Shown piece after piece: positions 4,897 to 13,715 of a stretch of DNA of 19,601 bases (positions are counted from its first letter, which is position 1; every line of letters starts with the position of its first letter). Source of the stretch: a virus (Duplodnaviria; Heunggongvirae; Uroviricota; Caudoviricetes). The stretch lies in IMG/VR virus record IMGVR_UViG_2529293139_000005, one strand, 5' to 3'. Both the position numbers and the translations under genes were made by a program. The notes below the pieces were generated by a model. That model did no database searches and was not told the origin of the DNA. It saw only the letters and a list, made by a program, of their open reading frames with translations.

Positions 4897-5943
4897 TCAG
4901 TTATCCTTTAATAACCTATACAGTTTTGTAGGGGTACATCCTGAGGATATTGTTAAGTTCGTAGCACGCCTTTTCCGCCCACCATCGTATAAACGAAAAC
5001 CAGTAGTAGACGAATTTTCTGCGTCAAAAACTATAGACAGTATAACGTCCCCAGACTTTTTTTGCCATTCATATGTGCCGTTAGTTGGTTTTGTCATCTG
5101 TAGACGCCAGTCAAGAACGCCATCACTTATAGCTGAGAGATCGTTTAGTACGTCTAGTACGGATTGATATCTTTCATTTGGATCTACATGAATGCATTTG
5201 TTTACTATTGTTATCAATTTTTTATGTATGTGGGAAGGATACTCTTTTAATGGATAGGAGCCATTAATTATCGACTCTCTGAGTTGTTCAATCGTTCTAA
5301 ATGCAGATCTTTCTCTTTCAAAATTATCATATCCAACACACATTCTATATATGGTTAATCCTGCCTGATATATGTCATATGTGAAATTATAATCATTTGT
5401 TGATAAAGAAAAATATTCCGGTGGCACATGAAAATGATATCCAAACTCAGGCGCAGCTCTCGATTCCTCATTGACTAACTGAGACAATCCAAAGTCAGAT
5501 AGCATGGCCTCATTTCTGTTTGATATCATGATGTTATTAGGTTTTATATCAAAATGCATAAGACCTTTTGAGTGTATATGATAAAGCCCACTTAAAAATT
5601 GAATAGAATACCGTATTATCTCCCTGCTCGTAAGATTAATCTTTTTTATTAATTGGTTTAGCGAACCATTATGATAAAATGGCATGGCTATATAGATATT
5701 GCTCTCACATTGAGCAGCATACTGAACTTGCACAATATTTGGATGTGCATGTTTATAGAGAAGCCTTGCTTCATTAAAGTAGTCGTCGTGGTTAGTGTTT
5801 TCTTTTTTTTCTATTTCTTTAATCACCAAGTCATGAGCTAGGTGTCTGTCATGAGCCAGATATACTTTTGAAAAACAACCCTGTTCTTCTAGATCACGAA
5901 TCCATTCGAATGCTACATCAGCTCTTTTGTATGGAGTCAGCAT
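4897..5943 (-). CDS. Hanks-type (eukaryotic-like) Ser/Thr protein kinase, 348 aa, with C-terminal extension of unknown function
   Basis: Kinase motifs in order: LVIKE (beta3 Lys), HFDIKPNN (catalytic loop, non-RD), SDFGLS (DFG), PPEY (APE-like); strong GGAGG RBS; AT-rich relative to neighbours. Confidence 0.85.
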   Translation of the reverse strand: MLTPYKRADVAFEWIRDLEEQGCFSKVYLAHDRHLAHDLVIKEIEKKENTNHDDYFNEARLLYKHAHPNIVQVQYAAQCESNIYIAMPFYHNGSLNQLIKKINLTSREIIRYSIQFLSGLYHIHSKGLMHFDIKPNNIMISNRNEAMLSDFGLSQLVNEESRAAPEFGYHFHVPPEYFSLSTNDYNFTYDIYQAGLTIYRMCVGYDNFERERSAFRTIEQLRESIINGSYPLKEYPSHIHKKLITIVNKCIHVDPNERYQSVLDVLNDLSAISDGVLDWRLQMTKPTNGTYEWQKKSGDVILSIVFDAENSSTTGFRLYDGGRKRRATNLTISSGCTPTKLYRLLKDN

Positions 5944-6398
5944 CCCCTTACCTCCGCAGATAGTGCAGCCAAAACAGCTTCATTTGTTTCAGTTGTAAAA
6001 CCAGAATTATCGATTCCATTTATATTACGGTGTGACTTCAATATTTCTTTATACTCGATCTCTGTTAGGTTCAATGATGACTTCATACCAGATTTTCTAA
6101 TGGTGTAATATCTTCTTACATCACTGCTTGAAAATGCTTCTTGAATAACAGCTTCTATATAAAGGCGGTCAATGCTAAGATTATCAGAGTTTGATTCAGT
6201 AACGCGTATAGCAGCTAATTCAACATTATATAAATTAAGAATGTCGAGGATGTTATTTCGCACATACTTTAATTTTTCTGGTGTGTCTAAGGTCGAAGGT
6301 ATTTTAATAACATCAACACATTTGAGTGCAGACTCATCAGTGCAATATACAACAAAAGATGTAACTTTGGGCGCCGCCCTAACACCTAGTATTCTCAT
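5937..6398 (-). CDS. Hypothetical protein (153 aa), first gene of the kinase cassette, translationally coupled to the kinase
   Basis: ORF 5937..6398(-); its TGA (5939..5937) lies 2 nt inside the kinase ATG (5943..5941); no recognisable domain; AT-rich. Confidence 0.65.
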   Translation of the reverse strand: MRILGVRAAPKVTSFVVYCTDESALKCVDVIKIPSTLDTPEKLKYVRNNILDILNLYNVELAAIRVTESNSDNLSIDRLYIEAVIQEAFSSSDVRRYYTIRKSGMKSSLNLTEIEYKEILKSHRNINGIDNSGFTTETNEAVLAALSAEVRGC

Positions 6399-6478: not shown

Positions 6479-7171
6479 TTATCCATGTTTCCTGTATGTT
6501 TGCGGCATGCTCCCAATAACTTTCCCGAAGATAAACACCCGGTTCATCTCGTCTTTCTCGATTGGGTCCCACGGTGAGTAGCTCTTGTTATCAGAGATAA
6601 CCAGCAGTTTATCCTTCATCATTTGCAGGCGCTTAACATGGGCTGTGTCGTCATACAGAAACGCATAGATACCATCACCGTCGAAAGATTTAACAGTGAT
6701 ATCAACGAACAGAAGATCACCTGGTTCGATCGTTCCTGACATGCTGTCACCGCGTACGTTAATGATGCGGATATTTTCTGCCTTCCTGCCATCGAACATG
6801 TGACGAGCATCGTCAAACGAGTACTCAACCGAGCGTAGAACTTCTACAAACTCACGGTTGATGACTCCCGGCCCGGCACTCACTTCTATATCAAGAACGT
6901 CAATCTTGAAGTATTTGGGATGGTTGGCAGCAGGCTTCCCTGATTGTTGACCGTCATTTCTCATCGGGCCTATGCCTGATGAGAGCCACTCTGTTCGAAC
7001 ACCCAATGCATTAGCTATTTCAACAATTTTTGTTGAGCCGCGTGCGTTGCCGCTTGTCAGTCTCCAGATTGTGGGTTGAGCTACGCCAGACGCCTTTGCA
7101 AGAGCGCCTTGAGACATTCCAGATTGTTCCATCGCTAGGTTTAAGCGATCAGCAAGAGTTTCTTTTTTCAT
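6479..7171 (-). CDS. cI: CI-type prophage repressor: N-terminal XRE-family HTH plus C-terminal LexA-like S24 autopeptidase domain (about 230 aa from Met at 7171)
   Basis: HTH MSQGALAKASGVAQPTIWRL; S24-like segment with RGDSMSG (Ser) and downstream VKRL (Lys); no SD before ATG 7171 (possibly leaderless like lambda cI); the ORF-track start at 7207 would fall inside the promoter. Confidence 0.85.
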   Translation of the reverse strand: MKKETLADRLNLAMEQSGMSQGALAKASGVAQPTIWRLTSGNARGSTKIVEIANALGVRTEWLSSGIGPMRNDGQQSGKPAANHPKYFKIDVLDIEVSAGPGVINREFVEVLRSVEYSFDDARHMFDGRKAENIRIINVRGDSMSGTIEPGDLLFVDITVKSFDGDGIYAFLYDDTAHVKRLQMMKDKLLVISDNKSYSPWDPIEKDEMNRVFIFGKVIGSMPQTYRKHG

Positions 7172-7180
7172 AAGTTTTAA

Positions 7181-7250
7181 TTTATACGCTTGCGTATTGA
7201 TGGTCAAAACACGTTTTGCTATTGATTGGGTTAATACGCATTGCTATTAT
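7181..7250. promoter_or_regulatory. Divergent PRM/PR promoter and operator (OR) region between cI and cro
   Basis: Plus-strand PR candidate: -35 TTGATT 7222..7227, 17-bp spacer, -10 TATTAT 7245..7250; minus-strand PRM candidate -10 TATAAA (plus 7181..7186); near-palindrome ATACGCTTGCGTAT; TTGCTATT at 7216 and 7241. Confidence 0.5.
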
Positions 7251-7281
7251 CCATTCATTGTAATACCAATAGGAATTGATA

Positions 7282-7509
7282 ATGACAAATCAAACCATTC
7301 AACTCGCAATCAGTATTACAGGTAGTCAAAAACGACTGGCAGATCTATGCGGTGTAGCCCAGCCCACTGTTTGGCGTTGGCTACACGGTGGCGGAATTGA
7401 TGCCCGCTATGTAATGAAAATTGTCTCAGCCACTGGTGGAAAGATTAAACCAGCAGATATTCGTCCCGACCTTGCACCATTGTTTAACGCGAGTAATTCT
7501 GCCGCCTAA
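7282..7509 (+). CDS. cro: Cro-like HTH regulator (75 aa from ATG 7282)
   Basis: MTNQTIQLAISITGSQKRLADLCGVAQPTVWRWLHGG with HTH; AGGAA RBS 7271..7275; divergent from cI. Confidence 0.8.
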   Translation: MTNQTIQLAISITGSQKRLADLCGVAQPTVWRWLHGGGIDARYVMKIVSATGGKIKPADIRPDLAPLFNASNSAA

Positions 7510-7539
7510 ACTGCGGCGTTAACTGATAAGGCAATGATT

Positions 7540-8079
7540 ATGCAACCACTTACATACCAACAGACTAGCGGATTTAGCCCGACTGCGGTGATAAATCGTT
7601 CTCAAATAAAACAGGTGCCAGGCCACGAAAAAATCCGTGATGCCGTTCGCGCCTGGTCGGCTGCAGATAATCAGGATGTTGTTGCCGCACTCATTGTGAA
7701 TGAGTATCGGGAGCAGGGCGGCGGCACCATCGATTTCCCTGATGATGTCAGCCGTGCACGCCAGAAGCTGTTCCGCTTCCTCGATAACAAATTCGATTCT
7801 GAAAAATACCGAAATAACGTGCGTGAACTGACCCCGGCAATTCTGGCGGTACTACCGCTGGAATATCGCGGCCACCTGGTTGAGCAGGATAGCTTCATGG
7901 CTCGGCTGGCTGAAATGGAAAAGGAACTCTGTGAGGCAAAGCAGGCGGTCATTCTCAACGCACCACGCCACCAGAAACTGAAGGAGATGAGTGAAGGCAT
8001 TGTGTCGATGTTTCGAGTGGACCCGGATCTGGCTGGTCCATTGATGGCGATGGTCACCACCATGCTGGGGGCAATATGA
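7540..8079 (+). CDS. YdaT-like protein in the cII position (about 180 aa)
   Basis: Sits immediately after cro where lambda has cII; segments EYREQGGG and LTPAILAVLPLEYRGHL resemble the YdaT family as I recall it; start 7534 or 7540. Confidence 0.55.
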   Translation: MQPLTYQQTSGFSPTAVINRSQIKQVPGHEKIRDAVRAWSAADNQDVVAALIVNEYREQGGGTIDFPDDVSRARQKLFRFLDNKFDSEKYRNNVRELTPAILAVLPLEYRGHLVEQDSFMARLAEMEKELCEAKQAVILNAPRHQKLKEMSEGIVSMFRVDPDLAGPLMAMVTTMLGAI

Positions 8080-8085
8080 CAGGTT

Positions 8086-8178
8086 CAAAAATGGCGAAAG
8101 TCGGTCTGCGGGAACAGAACCGACTTTCAGGTGCAAATCGTAACACACTCATTGCGGGAGGAATTATGGCAAACACTG
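8086..8178 (-). ncRNA. Candidate OOP-like antisense RNA, defined by a minus-strand intrinsic terminator; promoter and 5' end not established
   Basis: Perfect 10-bp inverted repeat GAAAGTCGGT (8096..8105) / ACCGACTTTC (8119..8128) with 13-nt loop; on the minus strand it is followed by GCCATTTTTG; no minus-strand gene upstream to terminate. Confidence 0.35.
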
Positions 8179-9095
8179 CTGAGATATTCAATTTTCCAGT
8201 GCCGGATGCGGCACAAAAGGAGCCGCGCGTGGCAGATCTCGATGATGGTTATACGCGCATTGCAAATGAGTTGCTGGAAGCTGTGATGCTGGCCGGATTA
8301 ACACAGCACCAGCTTCTGGTCTTCCTGGCTGTCATGCGCAAAACATATGGCTTTAATAAAAAACTGGATTGGGTGAGCAACGAGCAACTGTCCGGATTGA
8401 CCGGGATATTACCGCACAAGTGTTCTGCTGCAAAAAGTGTTCTGGTAAAGCGTGGGATTTTGATTCAGAGCGGGCGGAATATCGGTATTAATAATGTGGT
8501 CAGTGAATGGTCAACATTACCCGAATCAGGTAAGAAAAATAAAGTTTACCTGAAAGAGGTAAATTTACCTGAATCAGGTAAGAAAAGTTTACCCAAATCA
8601 GGTAAAGGCGTTTACCCGAATCAGGTAAACACAAAAGACAAACTAACAAAAGACAATATAAAACCTTTTTCGTCCGAGAATTCTGGCGAATCCTCTGACC
8701 AACCAGAAAACGATCTTCCTGTGGTGAAACCAGATGCTGCAATTCAGAGCGGCAGCAAGTGGGGGACAGCAGAAGACCTGACCGCCGCAGAGTGGATGTT
8801 TGACATGGTGAAGACCATCGCACCATCAGCCAGAAAACCGAATTTTGCAGGGTGGGCTAACGATATCCGCCTGATGCGTGAACGTGACGGACGTAACCAC
8901 CGCGACATGTGCGTGCTTTTCCGCTGGGCATGCCAGGACAACTTCTGGTCCGGTAACGTGCTAAGTCCGGCCAAACTCCGCGACAAGTGGACCCAACTCG
9001 AAATCAACCGTAACAAGCAACAGGCAGGCATGATAGCCAGCAAACCAAAACTCGACCTGACAAACACTGACTGGATTTACGGGGTGGATTTATGA
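8166..9095 (+). CDS. O: Replication initiator O (309 aa from ATG 8166); non-lambda N-terminal domain, lambda-type C-terminal domain
   Basis: GGGAGG RBS 8156..8161; N-terminus MANTAEIFNFPVPD parallels lambda O MTNTAKILNF; C-terminal WANDIRLMRERDGRNHRDMCVLFRWACQDNFWSGNVLSPAKLRDKWTQLEINRNKQQAG matches lambda O from memory. Confidence 0.9.
   Translation: MANTAEIFNFPVPDAAQKEPRVADLDDGYTRIANELLEAVMLAGLTQHQLLVFLAVMRKTYGFNKKLDWVSNEQLSGLTGILPHKCSAAKSVLVKRGILIQSGRNIGINNVVSEWSTLPESGKKNKVYLKEVNLPESGKKSLPKSGKGVYPNQVNTKDKLTKDNIKPFSSENSGESSDQPENDLPVVKPDAAIQSGSKWGTAEDLTAAEWMFDMVKTIAPSARKPNFAGWANDIRLMRERDGRNHRDMCVLFRWACQDNFWSGNVLSPAKLRDKWTQLEINRNKQQAGMIASKPKLDLTNTDWIYGVDL
8517..8629. repeat. Replication origin iterons inside O: four 18-bp palindromic TTACC-N8-GGTAA repeats plus one degenerate copy, followed by an A+T-rich stretch
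   Basis: ttacccgaatcaggtaag 8517..8534; ttacctgaatcaggtaag 8565..8582; ttacccaaatcaggtaaa 8589..8606; ttacccgaatcaggtaaa 8612..8629; degenerate copy 8546..8563; A/T-rich 8630..8675. Confidence 0.85.
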
Positions 9096-10092: not shown

Positions 10093-10159
10093 TGAAACAG
10101 GTGAGTTGAGTTCAAACTGTAGTACAATTCTCTCCAGTTTGAACAGGAAAGAATATTCT

Positions 10160-10748: not shown

Positions 10749-12275
10749 ATGAAAAAAGCCATAGCATATATGCGATTTTCATCACCAGGTCAGATGTCTG
10801 GCGACTCATTAAACCGACAGAGAAGACTTATTGCTGAATGGTTAAAGGTAAATAGTGATTATTATCTTGATACCATAACATATGAAGATTTAGGATTAAG
10901 TGCATTCAAAGGAAAGCATGCACAATCAGGAGCTTTTTCGGAATTTTTAGATGCTATAGAGCATGGTTATATATTGCCAGGAACTACATTGTTAGTTGAA
11001 AGTCTGGACAGACTTTCAAGAGAAAAAGTCGGTGAAGCGATTGAACGTCTGAAATTGATTTTGAATCACGGTATTGATGTTATAACTCTTTGCGACAATA
11101 CAGTCTATAATATTGACTCTTTGAATGAGCCATATTCATTAATAAAAGCCATACTTATAGCACAAAGGGCAAATGAAGAAAGCGAGATAAAGTCAAGTCG
11201 GGTTAAATTATCATGGAAGAAAAAACGGCAGGATGCACTGGAATCAGGTACGATTATGACGGCGTCTTGTCCGAGATGGCTCTCCTTAGATGACAAAAGA
11301 ACGGCTTTTGTTCCAGACCCCGACAGGGTGAAAACTATTGAGCTAATTTTTAAACTCAGGATGGAAAGGCGCTCATTGAATGCAATAGCCAAGTATTTAA
11401 ATGATCATGCTGTAAAGAATTTCTCAGGAAAAGAAAGTGCATGGGGACCTTCTGTAATTGAAAAATTATTAGCGAATAAAGCTCTGATAGGTATATGCGT
11501 ACCTTCATATCGTGCAAGAGGTAAAGGAATAAGTGAAATCGCTGGCTATTATCCCAGAGTCATATCAGATGATTTGTTTTACGCTGTACAGGAAATTCGG
11601 TTGGCACCTTTTGGTATTAGCAATAGTAGCAAAAATCCTATGTTGATAAATCTACTTCGAACAGTTATGAAGTGCGAGGCTTGTGGTAATACCATGATTG
11701 TTCATGCGGTATCTGGAAGTTTGCATGGCTATTATGTTTGTCCGATGAGAAGACTGCATCGATGTGACAGGCCATCAATAAAGAGAGATTTGGTTGATTA
11801 TAATATCATTAATGAGTTGCTTTTTAATTGTAGTAAAATCCAACCAGTTGAAAACAAGAAAGATGCTAATGAAACTTTAGAGTTGAAAATTATTGAGCTC
11901 CAGATGAAAATTAATAATTTAATTGCTGCATTATCTGTTGCGCCTGAAGTTACCGCTATAGCAGAAAAAATCAGAGTATTAGATAAGGAATTACGAAGGG
12001 CTTCTGTATCATTAAAAACTTTGAAGAGTAAAGCGGTGAGTTCACTTGGTGATTTTCATGCTATTGACTTAACCAGTAAAAATGGGCGAGAGCTATGTCG
12101 TACACTTGCCTATAAAACATTCGAAAAAATCATAATCAATACAGATAATAAAACCTGTGATATCTATTTTATGAATGGCATTGTTTTTAAACACTATCCT
12201 TTAATGAAAACAATATCCGCCCAGCAGGCGATAAGTACTCTCAAATATATGGTTGATGGTGAGGTTTATTTTTGA
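10749..12275 (+). CDS. ybcK: Large serine recombinase (508 aa), YbcK-like
   Basis: N-terminal resolvase-type catalytic region AIAYMRFSSPGQ (Ser), large central domain, Cys cluster CEACGN...CPMRRLHRC (zinc ribbon), coiled-coil C-terminus; AT-rich gene downstream of emrE as in DLP12. Confidence 0.85.
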   Translation: MKKAIAYMRFSSPGQMSGDSLNRQRRLIAEWLKVNSDYYLDTITYEDLGLSAFKGKHAQSGAFSEFLDAIEHGYILPGTTLLVESLDRLSREKVGEAIERLKLILNHGIDVITLCDNTVYNIDSLNEPYSLIKAILIAQRANEESEIKSSRVKLSWKKKRQDALESGTIMTASCPRWLSLDDKRTAFVPDPDRVKTIELIFKLRMERRSLNAIAKYLNDHAVKNFSGKESAWGPSVIEKLLANKALIGICVPSYRARGKGISEIAGYYPRVISDDLFYAVQEIRLAPFGISNSSKNPMLINLLRTVMKCEACGNTMIVHAVSGSLHGYYVCPMRRLHRCDRPSIKRDLVDYNIINELLFNCSKIQPVENKKDANETLELKIIELQMKINNLIAALSVAPEVTAIAEKIRVLDKELRRASVSLKTLKSKAVSSLGDFHAIDLTSKNGRELCRTLAYKTFEKIIINTDNKTCDIYFMNGIVFKHYPLMKTISAQQAISTLKYMVDGEVYF

Positions 12276-13528: not shown

Positions 13529-13715
13529 AACCTTTGATTTGCGATAATCAACTCGCCATAATCATGTCATCGGAGCCTGAACAACTCCGGTGACTTCTGC
13601 GCTAAACGGGGACGTTTATGCGCACACACAATCCAAACTCTCTTCTCCCTCCACAGATGCAGAAATGCACCTGCGATATATTGTATCCAGCGTTTGACCT
13701 CTGCGGAGGTGAAGC

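Follow-up and report, generated by a model that had tools for sequence, protein, structure and literature searches.

The short spacer between the YdaT-family gene and the replication gene O of this phage DNA holds a hairpin that probably forms the 3′ end of a small OOP-type RNA gene read leftward. The gene would lie in the oop locus of a lambdoid prophage that carries a YdaT-type regulator in the cII position. An OOP-like antisense RNA had been suggested here by a sequence-only reading. The suggestion gains support from the geometry of a putative promoter, from the strand-specific covariation of the hairpin and from the homology of a covariance model to the oop locus of phage P22.

Gene context and the start of O

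The window (the whole 19,601-nt stretch of DNA that was analysed) contains the early region of a lambdoid prophage. The main features around the spacer are collected in Table 1; P (PF06992) and a ren-like gene come after O. The gene upstream of the spacer had been called a cII analogue. It does occupy the cII position, but it belongs to the YdaT family and has no detectable sequence similarity to lambda CII. YdaT has been described as a functional equivalent of CII (PMC9986795, PMC8630535). An identical stretch is found in an Escherichia coli chromosome adjoining icd, together with a DLP12-like late region. The ydaT–O junction is present at at least 95% identity in 2411 of 5426 complete E. coli genomes and also in phages, for example 4A7, Perceval and the PhiR series. 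All public annotations examined leave the ydaT–O spacer empty or cover it with an over-long O reading frame. Farther left, a 348-aa ORF (4897–5943, minus strand) sits in the interval from the kil/gam region to the CI-like repressor gene. The identical E. coli record names its product a serine/threonine protein kinase, and a 153-aa hypothetical gene (5937–6398) follows it.

Table 1. Positions of the genes, RNA parts and promoter elements at the ydaT–O junction, in window coordinates
Feature	Position	Strand	Remarks
CI-like repressor gene	6479–7207	minus	faces YdaS/Cro-like gene
YdaS/Cro-like gene	about 7282–7509	plus	opposite CI-like repressor
YdaT-family gene in cII position, 181 aa	7534–8079	plus	PF06254, 1e-29; ends before predicted RNA
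Predicted OOP-type RNA, ~69–70 nt	8086–8155	minus	fold z = −4.42; covariance model R1
RNA tail, presumed 3′ end region	8087–8095	minus	spacer GCCA (8095–8092), then U5 (8091–8087)
3′ stem-loop	8096–8128	minus	14 pairs; 99.2% paired on minus strand vs 86.6% on plus strand in relatives
RNA 5′ part GCAAUGAGUGUGUUACGAUUUGCACCU	8129–8155	minus	weak, unproven stem only
Predicted transcription start G	8155	minus	7 nt past −10 hexamer; homology-inferred
Shine–Dalgarno GGGAGG of O	8156–8161	plus	4 nt before ATG 8166; adjoins predicted RNA 5′ end
Extended −10 TGC CATAAT	8163–8171	minus	CAT (8168–8166) is the complement of the O start codon
Replication initiator O	8166–9095	plus	PF04492 match; BLASTP vs lambda O
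−35 hexamer TTGAAT of pO-like promoter	8186–8191	minus	promoter scan; within O codons 7–9

The long O reading frame opens at ATG 8076, in an ATGA overlap with the ydaT stop codon (8077–8079), and encodes 339 aa. RefSeq PGAP, phage 4A7 and others annotate O in this way, and the frame is indeed open from that ATG, so the stretch under study could be taken as the first 30 codons of O. However, BLASTP aligns M1 of lambda O with residue 31 of the long ORF, which is ATG 8166, and this ATG has its own Shine–Dalgarno sequence. In relatives with the same hairpin, the distance between hairpin and ATG varies from 34 to 37 nt, and thus the reading frame of the extension is not kept. The SEN34-type relatives have an in-frame stop codon 27 nt upstream of the O ATG, the in-frame upstream peptide of mEp237 and PHB10 is unrelated, and the polymorphisms are mostly non-synonymous. 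Based on the lambda O alignment, the Shine–Dalgarno sequence and the lack of conservation of the extension, we assign 8080–8165 as non-coding spacer. The O start is placed at 8166 (309 aa), the public start at 8076 makes the gene over-long, and a coding role for the stretch is almost inconceivable. A second coding candidate, a small ORF (MAK...RLSG) running across the hairpin, was also rejected; its ATG is missing in KO-TP1, PHB10 and SEN34 and its frame is lost. Inside O there are five ori-type iterons TTACCYRAAWSAGGTAA (8517–8633), each an inverted repeat, spaced 19–29 bp apart; lambda has four.

Conservation and strand of the hairpin

The perfect 10-bp inverted repeat pointed out in the sequence-only reading is present: GAAAGTCGGT (8096–8105) is the exact reverse complement of ACCGACTTTC (8119–8128). 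Read on the minus strand, the stem-loop consists of 10 bp (8128–8119 with 8105–8096), a bulged U at 8118, a further 4 bp (8117–8114 with 8109–8106) and a 4-nt loop (8113–8110). This G+C-rich stem with its short loop has a folding energy of −18.6 kcal/mol when the minus-strand hairpin is taken alone. A 91-nt minus-strand stretch folds at −24.6 kcal/mol (z = −3.45). The predicted 70-nt RNA reaches the same −24.6 kcal/mol at the z-score listed in Table 1, and none of 200 shuffles folds as well. The plus-strand fold is weaker and unremarkable (z = −1.76). Perfect inverted repeats of at least 10 bp with a loop of 3–20 nt occur three times in the window, compared with 0.32 expected per shuffled window. 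The other two are GTTCAAACTG (loop 15, 10110–10144), just past the ren-like gene, and TTGAAAGTCT (loop 4, 10996–11019), within a recombinase-family gene (10749–12275). Taken by itself, the inverted repeat at the ydaT–O junction is not significant, and from the window alone it could have arisen by chance. The comparative data rule this out, because the hairpin is conserved with compensatory changes in relatives.

The comparison set holds 17 distinct versions of the hairpin from phages and prophages of E. coli, Klebsiella, Enterobacter, Salmonella and Scandinavium. RNAalifold independently gives the same 14 pairs, six of them compensatory (5–6 across analyses). In a 13-pair version, 99.1% of the cells are paired and the observed covariation is not matched in any of 500 shuffles, while a control with slid partners is only 38–45% paired. 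The two strands are clearly different in these 17 relatives. The minus strand is 99.2% paired and the plus strand 86.6%, and there are 31 G·U pairs on the minus strand but one on the plus strand; the minus-strand G·U pairs read as C·A or A·C mismatches on the other strand. The minus-strand hairpin keeps a stability of −18 to −20 kcal/mol in all variants, whereas the plus-strand values spread from −12 to −19 kcal/mol. For the commonest E. coli allele, GAAAGCCGGT...ACCGACTTTC, the values are −18.0 kcal/mol (minus) and −12.2 kcal/mol (plus). Since pairing, G·U bias and stability all favor the minus strand, the selected structure is a minus-strand RNA.

These strand differences bear directly on a role of the hairpin in the plus-strand pR mRNA, where it could be an RNase III site, protect the ydaT message from the 3′ side or regulate how O is translated. 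The hairpin does lie within the ydaT–O spacer of the pR transcript, and the window allele is a perfect palindrome that folds at −17.3 kcal/mol on the plus strand. However, the loss of pairing in relatives, the G·U distribution and the weak plus-strand fold of the commonest allele all oppose such a role. The plus-strand z-score is not unusual either and there is no plus-strand U-run. Action in the pR mRNA is very unlikely.

An element acting at the DNA level, be it a palindrome bound by a protein or a conserved linker for recombination between immunity and replication modules, is slightly more improbable still. It draws on the fact that the same hairpin segment joins varied neighbors, on the left YdaT or two other CII-like genes and on the right O or an orf48-like gene. 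On the other hand, the arms covary and their sequence is not fixed, and a G·U bias has no meaning in duplex DNA. The YdaT operator TTGATTN6AATCAA (PMC9986795) is unrelated to the hairpin; allowing up to 3 mismatches, the window has 21 operator matches against 18 expected and none of them overlaps the hairpin. The segment could be a linker and an RNA gene at once.

Two operator-like sequences lie elsewhere in the window. TTGATAATGACAAATCAA (7276–7293) has one mismatch to the CP-933P YdaT operator and covers the ATG region where the YdaS/Cro-like gene starts, including its start codon. TTGATTTGCGATAATCAA (13534–13551), far to the right, is a perfect match to the YdaT operator, and a promoter-like TTGATT-17-CATAAT starts there (13534–13562). 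The oop-like segment (8080–8170, compared with related loci) is a mosaic joint, with YdaT or two unrelated CII-like genes preceding the same hairpin. The gene that the promoter abuts in related loci is O, a small one like orf48 (MAKNPRYYHTAVHKN...) or a ParB-like one (MSTLSQLYKQKDKNG...). Homology ends immediately past ATGGCAAA in CobraSix and Scandinavium.

Predicted promoter, tail and RNA

The sequence-only reading could not assign a convincing promoter. The −35 hexamer falls just outside the coordinates it considered, and a predicted sigma-70 promoter with its −10 hexamer over the O start codon can be assigned on the minus strand. The promoter scan of this strand gives TTGAAT (8191–8186), a 17-nt spacer and TGcCATAAT (hexamer 8168–8163). 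All 12 distinct relatives with O downstream keep TTGAnn, the 17-nt spacer, TGn and CATA(A/C)T, and CATAAT is invariant across an alignment of the window, P22, Pantoea, SEN34 and lambda. The G at the start position is an invariant column in the alignment of relatives, and its spacing equals that found in lambda, where oop has its 5′ end at 38675. The homology of O to lambda O begins with the very first residue (M1 at 8166), and therefore the promoter is positionally homologous to lambda pO. A −10 mutation of lambda pO is located 2 bp from the first O codon (PMC3985674). The call rests on this positional homology to a promoter that has been defined by experiment, because promoter-like matches in the window are no more common than in shuffles (29 vs 34.5). 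The conservation of the −10 and −35 elements could in part come from the start codon, from the AT-rich spacer before it and from the O coding sequence. LexA control of pO is reported for lambda; inspection by eye finds no convincing LexA-type CTG-N10-CAG box here.

From the predicted start, the RNA would run leftward through its 5′ part into the hairpin. The GCAA...UUGC of the 5′ part is kept in window-type relatives, without covariation. With about 69–70 nt and a 3′ stem-loop opposite pR, the predicted RNA fits a size range of 63–77 nt. The earlier reading had expected a short transcript from near the O start to the cII analogue's 3′ end. The predicted end instead stops short of ydaT, some 8 nt rightward of its stop codon. 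The RNA would be antisense only to the intercistronic spacer and, unlike in lambda and P22, would leave the activator gene's coding region uncovered (stop codon at 8077–8079, U-run at 8087–8091), and the SEN34 RNA locus likewise does not overlap its upstream coding region. As that reading also noted, the hairpin has no credible minus-strand gene upstream to terminate; the plus strand carries O, P and ren alike.

The T5 run seen in the earlier reading is real on the minus strand and has no counterpart on the plus strand. After the stem the tail reads GCCAUUUUU (in its longer minus-strand form GCCAUUUUUG). The T5 run begins 4 nt past the stem base rather than within 0–2 nt of it, and for this reason a consensus terminator scan does not list the site. 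The term intrinsic terminator is thus right in that a minus-strand hairpin is followed by T5, but with the GCCA spacer and a polymorphic U-run the site is not canonical. Among about 81 near-identical relatives, about 30 have TTTTT (~38%), 31 have TTTCC and 20 have TTTCT. At least UUU is present in every close relative, and the stem is intact in the UUUCC and UUUCU alleles too. The GCC(A/C) between stem and U-run is conserved in the window-type subfamily. In this subfamily the base of the hairpin (8092–8103) has the almost invariant motif GGCGAAAG(C/T)C, which could form a plus-strand GGC-GAAA-GCC mini-hairpin. In a tail score of the d'Aubenton-Carafa/Kingsford type, the window tail has −1.9 (subfamily −1.8 to −2.2) compared with −5.5 for lambda tO, and it reaches −3.7 only when the lower A-U pairs are taken into the tail. 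In Pantoea, Mixta, Rahnella, Serratia, Pectobacterium and Kluyvera, the homologues show a U-run directly after the stem in the same place. These canonical U-runs in distant homologues point to a terminator role of the hairpin in the family. For the window tail itself the termination efficiency is uncertain, because the U-run is offset from the stem and is polymorphic. A plausible alternative is that the same RNA arises when transcripts read through, are released by Rho and are then trimmed back as far as the stable hairpin.

The tail data raise the most serious rival to the OOP-type RNA gene, which is in fact a variant of it. In this variant the pO-like promoter would work, yet the hairpin would terminate poorly, so that most transcripts read on antisense to ydaT, and the stem-loop is an exonuclease barrier, a processing site or a pairing element. 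The GCCA spacer, the weak tail score and the U-run, which is degenerate in most close relatives (~60%) with the stem intact, are all consistent with such leakiness, as is the minus strand from 7207 to 8090, where the scan finds no other terminator-like site. However, the homologous hairpins of P22 and of many relatives are canonical terminators and the sequenced P22 RNA ends in a U-run. The tail would also be stronger with the lower A-U pairs taken as U-tract, and a short RNA is expected either way. We consider predominant read-through unlikely.

Proposed function and relation to known OOP RNAs

A covariance model (R1) was built from the 17 relatives, with the window included. It matches the window at 8081–8165 on the minus strand with 92.6 bits, which is a self-match since the window is part of the model. 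All 20 of its matches lie on the strand opposite to that of the replication genes. The model also matches the P22 oop locus over its full length (26.2 bits, E = 4e-5). With lambda oop the match is not significant (E = 0.44) and covers the 5′ part only. The P22 RNA has been sequenced; it has 63 nt, GAUUGAUCCAG...GGCCUCAAAACUGUUCCCGCAGUCUUGAGGCUUUUCUUU, and ends in a U-run (PMC13397905). Record AF527608 (P22) annotates the oop promoter and terminator "by homology with lambda". The apical 12 nt CUGUUCCCGCAG of the P22 3′ hairpin are identical to those of the window, and in both loci a CATAAT −10 hexamer lies over the start codon of the first gene of the replication module. The two loci differ in several respects. 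The P22 stem base is GGCCUC/GAGGCU and is directly followed by UUUUCUUU, whereas the window has GAAAG/CUUUC, GCCA and U5. The 5′ part of the P22 RNA is lambda-like (GAUUGAUCCAG), while that of the window is unrelated. The P22 promoter lies on orf48 and not on an O homologue, and its RNA overlaps c1 by about 42 nt, whereas the predicted window RNA overlaps no coding sequence. The SEN34-type relatives have the window-type hairpin together with a lambda/P22-type 5′ part at the same position, and these intermediates provide a chain of homology from the window hairpin to lambda oop.

An Rfam scan of the whole window finds no family at its gathering score. In permissive scans the minus-strand matches are all sub-threshold (ctRNA_pGA1, sar, STnc450 and PtaRNA1). 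An Rfam scan of lambda's own oop region gives nothing, so OOP is absent from Rfam. STnc450 was dropped as an identity; it is mentioned in a single paper, which maps it to 5.33 Mb in EDL933 and gives no link to the ydaT–O locus. The sar RNA of P22 (RF00262) matches the minus strand at 8092–8170 with 17.3 bits, where its gathering score is 43. An apical CUGUUxCCGCAG is common to the 3′ hairpins of sar, of P22 oop and of the window element. However, sar has a different locus and a different target (ant), and we treat the likeness as a resemblance of terminator hairpins only.

By analogy with lambda, we infer the following mode of action for the OOP-type RNA. The pO-like sigma-70 promoter would fire leftward from within the first O codons and give an RNA of about 69 nt starting at G 8155. 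Transcription would stop at GCCAUUUUU, past the 14-bp stem-loop (8128–8096), or exonucleases would halt their trimming there. Over its full length the predicted RNA is complementary to the ydaT–O spacer in the pR message, and the complementarity reaches the base adjoining the O Shine–Dalgarno sequence. The duplex would be a substrate for RNase III, after which the upstream ydaT message would be degraded, expression of the CII analogue would be lowered and lytic growth would be favored. The convergent promoter would also damp pR transcription into O and ori. In lambda, both OOP-dependent RNase III cuts are outside cII, and secondary decay is needed to inactivate the message (PMC5869508); for this reason the missing coding overlap is compatible with the lambda mechanism. 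In lambda, pO dampens transcription from pR, and normal replication requires it (PMC3985674).

It is possible, though we are doubtful, that the main role is control of the replication module rather than antisense control of the activator. The RNA could pair with the 5′ leader of O beside its Shine–Dalgarno sequence, or convergent transcription could interfere with pR transcription into ori, and the degenerate U-tract could tune read-through. This is suggested because no part of the CII analogue's coding region is open to pairing with the RNA and because the promoter always abuts the first gene of the replication module (O, orf48-like or ParB-like). If so, replication control would be the conserved function of oop, and antisense control of cII would be a specialization of lambda and P22.

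For the OOP-type RNA gene as such, the meaning is incremental and not surprising, in a module that is very common in E. coli. The element is an unannotated, ordinary member of the OOP family, with a YdaT-type and not a CII-type activator and without coding overlap. Its recognition corrects the start of O and adds a likely regulator of the decision on lysis–lysogeny and replication to YdaS/YdaT-type prophages. No OOP equivalent in such prophages is described in the searchable literature, in which our searches found only reference-list mentions. Given the lack of overlap with the activator coding region, the locus is a natural test case for whether OOP RNAs act via the intercistronic part of the duplex.

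Other loci resemble this one in map position. OOP(BTP1) of the Salmonella prophage BTP1 and the OOP-like sequences of Stx phages are likewise antisense between cII-type and replication genes (PMC7067206, PMC5488031). Compared by their descriptions, they differ in that they overlap the 3′ end of cII. The lambda OOP RNA has 77 nt and overlaps cII by 52 nt (PMC5869508). Lambda has the leftward promoter TTGAGT-17-TGtCATAAT, with CAT over the O ATG and a G start 7 nt on, just as predicted for the window. In both cases a short RNA, here a predicted one, ends in a stem-loop about 75–85 nt to the left of the O ATG and is antisense to the pR message between the gene of the lysogeny activator and O. On the other hand, there is no significant sequence match to lambda OOP outside the promoter. 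In lambda tO, U6 follows the stem directly, whereas in the window GCCA comes first. The partner gene in lambda is cII, while in the window it is of the YdaT family.
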